Shown here one piece after another: positions 54,762 through 63,964 of a stretch of DNA of 64,000 bases. Under the pieces are notes generated by a model that was not told where the DNA came from, searched no databases, and saw only the letters and a list, made by a program, of their open reading frames with translations. Both the position numbers and the translations under genes were made by a program. Position 1 is the stretch's first letter; every line of letters starts with the position of its first letter. This DNA comes from Balanoglossus misakiensis (lineage: Eukaryota > Animalia > Hemichordata): assembly GCA_040954595.2 (NCBI GenBank), contig CM082589.2, positions 7,127,186 to 7,191,185 of the forward strand, written 5' to 3'.

Positions 54762-57700
54762 ATGAGTACTAGTGATCGTACAAAAATAAAACGCGAGGAG
54801 CAGTGTATGCAACCGGATGGCATAACGGTAGCCTACATAAATGATGTGATAGAAGACATTCAACGAACAGAAAGGAGCATATCCGGCTCGGAACTGGCGT
54901 GTTTTCGATATTGCCAACATTTACTAGTGAGGAAACCTCAACATGTAAGTCTTTTTTTTTCGCCTTTTGAATATTTGTTTGCATTGTCGACAAACCTACC
55001 CGTGTCTGTGTGTCTTTGATACTGACTCACTCATTACGTTATTCGACATTCCCAACCTGAGAAATACTTTCGGTCAAGGCGTTGATTGTTTGCTATCGTG
55101 CATCGTGTATCATCCAAGCATCATTTAACAGTGAACATGACGAACTTGATTTCTCTTTCTTTCCTAGACATGGAAGAATGCTGTATTTCATATACGTCTG
55201 AAGCGCATGAACGTGACAATGCATGCAGGGGACGGCAGTCACAGATTCAATGTCAGGGTCGACAAGCATGGCAGTGCGTTTTCATCGCCACAATGTACAT
55301 GGACTTTCTCGGGACACATTGACAGCACGATAGGTATGAGAGCGAACGACAATTTGAGCAAATTTGGAGAGCGGCAAATTTCTGGCCCACTTCACGGACC
55401 CCGAGTGCGAGATTGTCCTCGTATGTCTTTGGAGGACATTAAAATTTTGTCGAAGGCGATAACCCAATAATCATCCCAACCTTCCTTTTTCTTTGGTAGA
55501 TGAATTTTTGATCGGAGACGAAACGAAAGTTAATTTTCAATCAATTAAACCACAAGCGAAATTAAGTTCCCATCAAAGCGGGACAGAGGCGGACATCACA
55601 TATACAAGTAACTGCCATCCCTTTCCAGAAGTTGAAAACCCAGTGGTAAGTCATACTAAATTTGTAGTATATCTGTATCGTTTTTACCATATAAATCATG
55701 AGAAATTAAACTTGACTACTTCGACGTCGACGCTTCTTAATAGATACTCTAAATTGCCACCGAAACGCATTTCAAGCAAATAAAATCGGTTTGCTATAGT
55801 TCTTAGCATACTAGTACATATTTTATCAGTAATGTTGATAACTCTATACATGTATTTCGCCATGAACAGACGCACAGAAATGCAGTTTTCAAGACAACAG
55901 ACGACAACAGGGAGCCAGAAGAGCCGACGGCCAGAAGTAGTGAATACGTAAACGATTTTTCATTAGAAGATAATCCGATACTCAGAGAGGTAAACGAAGA
56001 ATCAGTTCTGCCAGAGGAGGGCGAAGGTAAATATAATCAATATTGGTTGATGATGATTACCATTTGCAGATCATTGAGAGAGAAGGCTTCCTCCAAAGTT
56101 TATTCGCACCATATTTCTTTAATGTAAAGATTCAGACTGGGGTGACATTAACCTTATTACTATTATCATTGTTGTTTTACTTTCAATTGTCAGATATAAT
56201 TTCAATCCGATGCGACCCCGAACTTAATTTTCAATCAATTAATAGAGCAACGCAGAAATTGAAATCTGTTTATGGTTGGTCGGAGGCGGACAGCAAAAGT
56301 TTCAATTATTGCTACTCCTTTGTGAAAGATGAAACGTCGACGGTATGCCATCTTACATGTTTTTGTTTAACTTGGAGAGCGGGAGGGAGAGAGGAGGGAG
56401 GGAGAGGGGGGAGAGAGAGAGAGAGAGAGAGAGAGAGAGAGAGGAGAGAGAGAGGGGGAGGGAGAGAGGGAGAGAGAAAGAGAGAGAGATCGTGAGAGAG
56501 AGAGAGAGAGGGAGAGAGAGGGAGAGAGAGGGGGGGAGAGAGAGAGAGAGGGAGAGAGAGAGATCGTGAGAGAGAGAGAAATAGAGAGAAAGAGAGAGAG
56601 AGAGATCGTGAGAGAGAGATCGTGTGAGAGAGAGATCGTGAGAGAGAGAGAGAGAGAGAAAGAGAGAGATCGTGAGACAGAGATCATGAGAGAGAGAGAT
56701 CGTGAGAGAGAGAGAGAAAGAGAGATATCGTGAGAGAGAGAGAGAGAGAAAGAGAGAGATCGTGAGAGAGAGAGAGAGAGAGAGAGAGAGAAAGAGAGAG
56801 ATCGTGAGAGAGTGAGAGAAAGAGAGAGAGAGAGAGATCGTGAGAGAGAGAGAGAGAGAAAGAGAGAGAGAGAGAGAGAGAGAAAGAGAGAGAGAAAGGG
56901 AGTGTGTGAGAGAGACAGAGAGGCTACTTTGTCACACTTTTGCGAAAAAGGAAATTCTCAAACTGGCCTGGTCACATCTTTCAAATTTTGTTTTGTACGC
57001 TAGCACATATAATCATGCATGATTTTTTTTCTGAACAGACTCTAAGCAATGCCACATTCAACATAACCTGTGGAAACGGCAAGACTGTCAAGCTGACAGC
57101 CGGGAAGGGTGAAAATAAGTTTGATTTTGCCTTGGTTGACGACGATAACCCGATGTTTAGAGAGGTTTACCGGGTCAAAGATGAATCAAGTTTAATTGAC
57201 ACCTGCGAAGGTATGGAAGGTATGTTCATCATCATCATCATCATCATCATCATCATCATCATCATCATCATCATCATCATCATCATCATCATCATCATCA
57301 TCATCATCATCATCATCATCATCATCATCATCATCATCATCATCATCATCATCCTCAAATTACAAGAGTACTTGTATAATAGAAATAAAGAAATCATCAA
57401 TTATCCTTAAAACTCACGAAATGTTCTTTTTCTTTTTTCCTCTGCAGTGAATGAAGTCGACAAACCGATTCATAGTTATGAATACAAATACATTGCAGGG
57501 AAGCAAATAGATGACCTCGTTCAGGAGTATTCGCGTCGACAAATAATCAGCGAAGACGACAAAGAAATCTTGTTACACGCCAAGGAATTATTTGAGAAGG
57601 AAAAAGAGAAGAGATTTAAGAAGGTAATACTTAGGAATTATCGACACTGTAGCATCTTACTTTCTAATTATTAAGATATACTGAGGTTTTCGGGGAAATT

Positions 57701-57979
57701 GACCCTGACTAATTCTAAGTTTTCTCTTTCATATTTGGTTAACAGAGAAGCGGATTTGAAAACATTCACCTGACAGTAATTTGCAGTAAATTTGAAGTCA
57801 TTCTGAAAGCTGGACACGGAGACAACATGTATATAGTGGAGAGAGGACAGGACTATGTGCCTACATACAAATGCCTGAGCTTATCAATGGCAAAACGTAT
57901 TAAGAAATATGCAAGAATGACTGGGGACGTGATAGGCGGAGTGATTAGCACTGGAGTCAGTTGTAAACAGATTATTTAG
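54762..57979 (+). CDS. Uncharacterised ~460-aa protein made of four tandem two-exon modules (gene U1)
   Basis: Exons 54762-54944, 55168-55333, 55500-55645, 55870-56026, 56194-56342, 57039-57210 (alternative donor 57219), 57448-57623, 57746-57979. All introns are GT-AG, phases alternate 0/1, and the joined frame is open. An in-frame TGA lies just upstream of the ATG. Confidence 0.78.
56375..56922. repeat. (GA)n microsatellite with interspersed GATCGT units
   Basis: Directly visible; intronic. Confidence 0.97.
57227..57354. repeat. (CAT)n microsatellite
   Basis: Directly visible; intronic, just after the exon 6 donor of U1. Confidence 0.98.
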
Positions 57980-63200: not shown

Positions 63201-63964
63201 AACCCGTTTTACAGTACATGTAGTATTATTAATGTAGAAATTTAGTCCGCTGTATGTCAATTAACACTTTTGTATCACATGCTCCCATGGTTGTCATAAT
63301 CATTGTACTGTATTTGTCCAAGTGCAGCCGTAATGTCCGCATTAATTGTTGTATTTGTTTTCGGTTTTCATCACGAAGGATATGGAGAAAGTTTTGATCA
63401 AAATATGCTGTGATGGTAGGATAGTCACTATTCGATCGGGAGATGATGACAACATAAAAGTCTTATACATCAGTCTGAATGAGAAGAGACAACCGTTCCT
63501 GGTGGAGGACGCCGAAGAGAAGTTAGAAGAAATTGGACGCAGACACTCAGAACACGTTGCCGGTAATTAAACACATTCCAACCAAATGTGCTGTATTTGA
63601 AAGCTTCTACAGAGAACCTATGAAAGTTTTTATCTCAATTATCGAGTACATGCATTCAAGTTCATTACCTGGGAAACACCAGCAACATCTTCGAACACCA
63701 GCATGGCTCATGGCAATGGATCAAACGGAAAACGGGCGATGTCACTTGCATTGGAGGGACCCAACGTTCTTTTTTGGGTGAATGAAGTAGGAATTTTGAG
63801 AACTTTGAGTTGTATATAGTATGTTTTTTTTTGCGTTCTTGCTGCAGAGATGGAAAGGCTCGACTCTCGTGAGATAGCTGGCGAATACGAAGACAATCAC
63901 TTGAATGGTCCCGGGAGAGTATATGACAATTGGAGCGTTTCCGATGGGAGCAGTTCGCAATCAA
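60295..63964 (+). CDS. Uncharacterised paralog of U1 (gene U2), 3'-partial, at least two modules
   Basis: Exons 60295-60334 (MGNENKKPTPDEK), 60859-61022 (YINHDAIEDI...LNCIRYCHRLI; probable GC donor), 61223-61382, small linker exons ~61770/61775-61810 and 62358-62396 (boundaries uncertain), 62774-62919, 63379-63562, 63848-63964. Similar to U1 and has the same phase-1/0/1 module structure. Confidence 0.68.
60362..60698. mobile_element. Kolobok-type MITE (TTAA TSD, AGG...CCT ends)
   Basis: ttaa|agggacaaagtc.ctctctcgctg.cc.ttttccattaa ... ttaatggaaaaaggggcagcgagagagagactttgtccct|ttaa. A degenerate relative lies at ~32020-32135. Confidence 0.78.
63008..63216. mobile_element. MITE with TACTGTAAAA...TTTTACAGTA ends (copy 2)
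   Basis: Paralog of 1558-1768. Confidence 0.8.

Follow-up and report, generated by a model that had tools for sequence, protein, structure and literature searches.

Two tandem acorn-worm genes encode arrays of a repeated α+β module with a confidently predicted fold

The window, the whole stretch of DNA that was analysed, comprises 64,000 nucleotides from the acorn worm Balanoglossus misakiensis (GenBank assembly GCA_040954595.2, contig CM082589.2, positions 7,127,186 to 7,191,185 of the forward strand). Near its end lie two genes, U1 and U2, whose predicted proteins consist of copies of one small module, each copy encoded by a "helical" exon followed by a "beta" exon. Sequence comparison shows that U1 and U2 are tandem members of an acorn-worm family whose predicted proteins are made only of 3 to 10 module copies on polar linkers. 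The module is likely to represent an undescribed acorn-worm domain family with a confident predicted fold. Judged from sequence and model, the module array would have an intracellular, non-catalytic, multivalent protein-binding role, a reading given a probability of about one half.

U1 consists of eight exons on the + strand that join into a 463-residue frame ending in a stop codon. All seven introns are GT-AG, with phases 0,1,0,1,0,1,0, and the five other frames are interrupted by 17-38 stops. AATAAA occurs at 58444 and 58625, 3' of exon 8. U2 also has eight exons on the + strand, spanning 60295-63964 and encoding 300 residues without a stop; it extends past the end of the window, and its five other frames hold 6-26 stops. 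The U2 start is preceded by an in-frame stop, and U2 is therefore a separate gene, as an earlier reading made from the letters alone (the sequence-only reading) had proposed. All 15 peptides quoted in that reading were found on the + strand, between 54834 and 63417. The use of bases by codon position is coding-like in both gene models, and their splicing is supported by sequence and homology.

Each module was said to contain an internal phase-0 intron, with modules joined by phase-1 introns. In U1 both statements hold throughout, the three joints between modules being phase 1. In U2 phase-1 introns are found at the entry to both modules and at the exit of module 2, and the departures are confined to module 1. 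The best donor for its internal intron is a GC at 61023, which scores 5.9 on a matrix made from 13 GT donors (their own scores are 6.0-11.5); the GT alternatives score -3.4 and -12.9. The exit of the same module is probably phase 2, since the phase-2 donor at 61393 scores 5.4 as compared to 3.4 for the phase-1 donor, and it is followed by two linker mini-exons.

Table. Predicted exons of U1 and U2 (window positions)
Feature	Position	Strand	Description
U1 exon 1	54762..54944	+	start codon, helical half of module 1 (N-terminal subtype)
U1 exon 2	55168..55333	+	beta half of module 1; model positions 54-90
U1 exon 3	55500..55645	+	helical half of decayed module 2, likely spacer now
U1 exon 4	55870..56026	+	beta half of decayed module 2
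U1 exon 5	56194..56342	+	helical half of module 3
U1 exon 6	57039..57219	+	beta half of module 3
U1 exon 7	57448..57623	+	helical half of module 4; without any of the three core cysteines
U1 exon 8	57746..57979	+	beta half of module 4, tail, stop codon
U2 first coding exon	60295..60334	+	in-frame stop just 5' of ATG
U2 exon	60859..61022	+	helical half of module 1; likely GC donor at end
U2 exon	61223..61392	+	beta half of module 1; exit likely phase 2, alternative phase-1 donor 61383
U2 exon	61770..61810	+	linker mini-exon (predicted)
U2 exon	62358..62396	+	linker mini-exon (predicted; weak acceptor)
U2 exon	62774..62919	+	helical half of module 2
U2 exon	63379..63562	+	beta half of module 2
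U2 exon	63848..63964	+	linker; gene goes on beyond window

The sequence-only reading had described a repeated domain of ~100 residues, with four copies in U1 and at least two in U2. The repeat is confirmed, with a folded core of ~90 residues; both U2 modules stand, and in U1 modules 1, 3 and 4 are intact and module 2 is a decayed copy. The window alone did not prove all six modules related, since only 4 of their 15 pairs beat all 1000 shuffles: U1 modules 2 and 3 (z 17.5; 32 of 83 residues identical), the first modules of U1 and U2 (z 9.8), U1 module 3 and U2 module 2 (z 7.8), and U1 modules 1 and 3 (z 6.5). U1 module 4 reached z 2.8 at most against the other window modules. The first round of database searching had been seeded with window modules, and a 99-position profile was rebuilt from 37 database modules only. 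On this profile U1 modules 1, 3 and 4 score 70.1, 57.6 and 38.8 bits, and U2 modules 1 and 2 score 41.5 and 37.0 bits, as compared to at most 8.6 bits for shuffles (200 per module) and 7.4 for reversed sequences. In these five modules the beta exon starts at model position 52-54. U1 module 2, at -1.1 bits, does not pass; it has lost core residues and is tied to the family through module 3. The most plausible reading is that it arose as a duplicate of module 3 and has decayed into an in-frame spacer. No further copies were found elsewhere in the window, the best of 2158 other six-frame segments having an E value of 0.076.

A search profile of 43 positions, made from five helical exons of the window, was run against 1.84 billion representatives at E≤0.001 and gave seven matches. 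Six are uncharacterised RefSeq proteins, here P0001 to P0006, five from Ptychodera flava (XP_070555177.1, XP_070554679.1, XP_070553409.1, XP_070553413.1 and XP_070576248.1) and one from Glandiceps talaboti (XP_077991465.1); these species belong to two different enteropneust families. The seventh match, P0007, is a low-complexity repeat and was dropped. The six homologues contain 39 module matches, 37 whole and two halves, with 6, 9 (7 whole, 2 halves), 10, 6, 5 and 3 copies per protein, in keeping with the lineage expansion that had been proposed. They share with the window genes the same module, contiguous across the window's internal intron, the same N-terminal subtype and the lack of other domains. 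The helical and beta halves are contiguous in all 37 whole modules of these independent gene models. The P0002 gene model has its first residue at model position 53 and its last at 54. In another P. flava protein, a single residue directly before the tenth module distinguishes two isoforms. These breaks suggest that the homologous genes have the same intron layout as U1 and U2.

The extent of the family found here is a minimum, as the large library was searched with a half-module profile only. A word-index protein search returned no relative among 3987 candidates with the helical-exon alignment, none among 4 with U1 exon 1, and only P0005 (1 of 7995) with the whole-protein alignment. It thus missed five known members, and its blanks are weak. 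Peptide patterns, which reach close relatives only, found none in metagenome, prokaryote-genome or viral contigs or in phage records. No description of the family was found in a search of literature listings and abstracts and of passages of the P. flava genome paper (PMC11175523).

The modules diverge rapidly, as had been suggested; the median pairwise identity is 26% (903 pairs, 43 modules). Whole-protein identities are about 20-26%, and module order differs between the window genes and the homologues. For U1 module 1 the nearest counterpart is P0006 module 1 (z 45), and U1 module 1 is 43% identical to the first module of XP_070576248.1. U1 module 3 and U2 module 2 are both closest to P0001 module 5, and U2 module 1 to P0001 module 4. 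Subtypes can be recognised from one species to another; in the module tree an N-terminal subtype groups U1, P0006, P0003 and P0005 (98/91 support). The mixture in U1 of this subtype with a module like P0001 module 5 suggests shuffling or differential loss, although long branches make this unsure. The linkers range from 11 to 118 residues (median 32, n=36; the 118 includes the decayed U1 module 2) and are rich in E, S, D, R, T and K. Residues about 1200-1503 of P0003 form a long low-complexity tail in which K/R clusters reminiscent of nuclear signals recur, and the C-terminus of P0005 is a tryptophan-rich stretch.

The region 5' of U1 is occupied by repeats. An AT-rich 88-bp satellite of 14.3 kb (39975-54269), with blocks in reverse orientation at 43921-44522 and 44658-48555, sits within a 189-bp tandem array (39360-54609) whose flanking units have the same orientation and are 93% alike over 255 bases. 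The end of the array, at ~54609, lies some 150 bases before the U1 start codon, and the promoter of U1 or a non-coding first exon might thus be located inside the array or on its far side. Upstream of U2, candidate non-coding 5' exons with good splice sites are seen on the + strand at 59233-59296 and about 58940-58983. The U2 N-terminus, MGNENKK, has a glycine at position 2 that suggests myristoylation, but it does not match the usual consensus. The closest P. flava protein lacks this glycine.

A caveat separate from the question of function is that U2, or both genes, might be a fresh pseudogene, the GC donor at 61023 being a damaged GT and the satellite having displaced the U1 promoter. The non-canonical donor, the decayed U1 module, the closeness of the repeat array to U1 and the long branches of four window modules would fit such a history. 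On the other hand there is no stop or frameshift in 463 + 300 codons, the base pattern is of the coding type, core residues are kept in five modules, and at the other positions the GC donor scores close to the GT donors. Recent loss of function is thus improbable.

Conservation was examined in 41 whole, non-decayed modules, leaving out U1 module 2 and one N-truncated row. Conservation of ≥70% is confined to hydrophobic core columns, to G and P, to three cysteines (40, 34 and 38 of 41) and to D36 (31), N78 (29) and E81 (29). Identity is 52% in the core and 21-24% outside it. D36, N78 and E81, at 71-76%, are the most conserved polar positions apart from the cysteines; none is invariant, and R, K, H and Y stay below 70% in every column of these modules. 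One cysteine lies after strand 1 and the other two are arranged as C-x3-C, one turn apart, in helix 2.

The cysteine trio could itself be the working part, binding a soft metal ion or acting as a thiol-oxidation switch, so that the array would serve a sediment-feeding animal as a multivalent metal or redox buffer. All three cysteines are present in 32 of the 43 modules, and each of the 40 whole modules with the first cysteine keeps at least one helix cysteine; U1 module 4, which lacks the first, lacks both. However, in 7 of 41 modules the middle cysteine has given way to L, I or S, as expected for a buried hydrophobic residue. There is no conserved fourth ligand, and cysteine makes up only 2.6-4.4% of the proteins. 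The co-occurrence is also weak, with ~0.5 double losses expected by estimate and 0 seen. A metal or redox function is therefore quite unlikely.

The suggestion that the proteins act on membranes was not supported. In a hydropathy scan none of the eight proteins has a signal-like N-terminus (best 11-residue hydropathy near the N-terminus ≤1.30), a pattern with which leaderless secretion would still be compatible. The first module begins at residue 5-10 in three independent gene models, as in U1. The same kind of scan found no membrane segment in U1 or U2, and all eight proteins are net acidic.

No named family could be assigned to the module, in agreement with the sequence-only reading. Single exons, six whole modules and whole proteins were compared with Pfam, and 16 alignment rows with NCBIfam and PHROGs; none of the 13 single exons scored above a Pfam cut-off. 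Against this, summed repeat scores pass the cut-off for Rdx (PF10262) in P0003 (27.0 vs 22.6, with no single stretch passing) and for DUF6514 (PF20124) in P0004 (27.6 vs 23.9, over two stretches). Single modules match these families at E 0.013 and 0.009 only, in one of the 16 rows each. Both matches were treated as summing artefacts, given the half-module coverage, the weak single-module scores and the absence of the SelW-type motif. Rdx proteins (SelW, SelT, SelH) carry CxxC or CxxU between the first strand and the helix. The module has no such motif after strand 1 and resembles Rdx over half its length only.

The structure of one Glandiceps module was predicted with AlphaFold2 at a predicted local distance difference test (pLDDT) score of 92.1 and a predicted template-modelling (pTM) score of 0.83; four of five models exceeded 91. 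The elements follow the order strand, helical hairpin, four strands, in agreement with the α+β character read from the exons. The module is predicted to be a five-stranded antiparallel sheet in which a helical hairpin, inserted after strand 1, packs on one face. Strand 1, from the helical exon, likely pairs with strand 2, from the beta exon, so that the two exons would form one folding unit. A single beta exon gave a weak model (pLDDT 60), and a predicted complex of the two exon products of U2 module 1, made without alignments, scored 0.02.

The structural check put forward by the sequence-only reading, a Foldseek search with the whole-module model, gave no match in either PDB or BFVD at E≤0.001. 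Z did not exceed 3.7 for any of 48,161 solved chains, and no match stood above background. The best viral match, a salmon gill poxvirus protein, is not significant (E 0.13, 46 columns, template-modelling (TM) score 0.32). Sequence searches of the PDB likewise gave nothing at E≤0.001. The best of these matches, the REV1 C-terminal domain (E 0.046), was rejected, as it is an all-helical domain matched by the helices only. The ESM Atlas gave no usable feature match; its structure matches came from a poor model, the best (TM 0.61) being to an unnamed phage protein. RelE/ParE, SelW, PUR/PC4 and the thioredoxin-like fold were not among the matches listed for the whole-module model. Among the closest known systems are the THUMP domain (2dir) and the N-terminal domain of eRF1/aRF1 (8ipa, 4af1, 3vmf). 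That the fold is truly unclassified is given somewhat less than an even chance, because the comparison covered PDB and BFVD and predicted structures of cellular proteins lie outside it.

Two further functions were weighed against the predicted fold. The open sheet face might bind single-stranded RNA or DNA, like the repeats of PUR-alpha and PC4, with which the module shares a four-stranded meander in tandem repeats and which were the top matches of the low-confidence beta-exon model. The acorn-worm module has, in contrast, helices before the sheet and an extra first strand, and nucleic acid binding of this type is very unlikely. The module might also be a diverged enzyme such as a RelE/ParE-type ribonuclease. 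RelE has the order strand, two helices, strands, which is the order predicted here. RelE pairs its first strand with the last, whereas the register inferred from the model pairs strand 1 with strand 2. The module has no invariant polar residue, nor does it show the conserved basic or aromatic residues of RelE/ParE catalysis. An enzymatic role is thus hardly credible.

Core-centred conservation, free change in copy number and the decay of one copy would be expected of a binding module more than of an enzyme. Each module would be a non-catalytic binding unit inside the cell, and the full array would hold several protein partners, or one repeated target, simultaneously. The three core cysteines likely staple the module core, and binding would probably take place on the open sheet face and the conserved G-x-E-x-N loop, with different partners likely for different module subtypes. 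Only a whole phase 1-to-1 exon pair could be duplicated or shuffled without breaking fold or frame, and an unneeded copy could decay into a spacer, as U1 module 2 appears to have done.

Several points weigh against multivalent binding or the fold on which it draws. The role was reached by excluding other readings, and the polar set D36, N57, E76, N78 and E81 may mark an active site that has degenerated, or a site for a small ligand. P0002 and P0004 have 19-residue windows of hydropathy 2.1-2.2, located on predicted strands. The fold was predicted from a 16-row alignment with six whole modules, and folded once, with a Glandiceps module rather than one from the window; for whole P0006 the ESM Atlas gives a poor model (pTM 0.25, pLDDT 0.43). 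In the tree several of the subtype groupings that involve window modules carry no star, and four window rows form long branches.

The arrays might instead serve host defence, as the sequence-only reading had considered possible, with diverged modules binding microbial or viral molecules that reach the cell interior. Tandem paralogues, clustering, variable copy number and divergence are general marks of invertebrate immune families. The window holds tandem paralogues, module shuffling would fit as well, copy number varies, and U1 shares just 24% identity with the relative closest to it. The accessions of P0003 and P0004 are consecutive, and P0002, P0003 and P0004 lie on contigs of the same size, which suggests that the module genes are clustered in P. 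flava. However, no death, TIR, nucleoside triphosphatase or other effector domain is present in any of the six homologues or in the window genes. Nor is a hypervariable face seen in five groups of close P. flava paralogous modules, where the non-core sheet is 65-79% identical as compared to 64-77% overall. Defence is thus an unlikely function. The fuller scenario of lineage-specific sensing or host defence is equally doubtful; in it a novel fold, invented or alone retained by acorn worms, would have spread by phase-symmetric exon duplication into intracellular arrays of subtypes with a three-cysteine switch.

Class 1-1 exon-shuffled animal modules such as EGF, sushi, kringle and fibronectin III are mostly extracellular and fused to many domains. 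The acorn-worm module is similar to these in its internal intron, tandem copies and mixed subtypes, and its borders in the window are phase 1 but for the exit of U2 module 1, which is more likely phase 2. In the binding reading it would act much as other tandem arrays of shuffled binding modules do. It differs in having no signal-like leader, in being seen only with itself, and in having no sequence or fold match to them. The sequence-only reading had likened it to a mobile domain, and combination with unrelated domains was not observed: no other recognised domain occurs in the six homologues or in either window gene, a small sample in which U2 is incomplete. The same reading had spoken of an undescribed "system", which overstates what is a protein family rather than an assembly of several parts.

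Small, confidently predicted folds without a match in solved structures are uncommon. The module comes in 43 natural copies with clear subtypes, and its exon layout reveals its mode of spread. It is ready for structure determination, might serve as a small binding scaffold, and is a test case for the origin and amplification of new domains in a deuterostome lineage close to chordates. Lineage-restricted domains of unassigned function are common in invertebrate genomes, and the interest is therefore moderate.

The remainder of the window contains other genes and repeats. Translational GTPase exons with a GTP_EFTU match lie on the - strand at 516-2127 and 3975-6128, with a 717-codon open frame carrying a PFDF..SPDD motif upstream of them. 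We take this GTPase to resemble HBS1L, and the 717-codon frame to be likely a long alternative exon of a Ski7-like short isoform. Two similar genes lie head to head at 33446-36703; one long exon has a weak 4HBT_2 thioesterase match (24.3 bits, cut-off 25.5) and the other has none. Ankyrin-repeat exons of a small gene occupy 27812-30046 on the + strand, with a (TATG)n microsatellite in an intron. At 12361-13785 a 355-bp unit is present in four tandem copies that are 97% alike.

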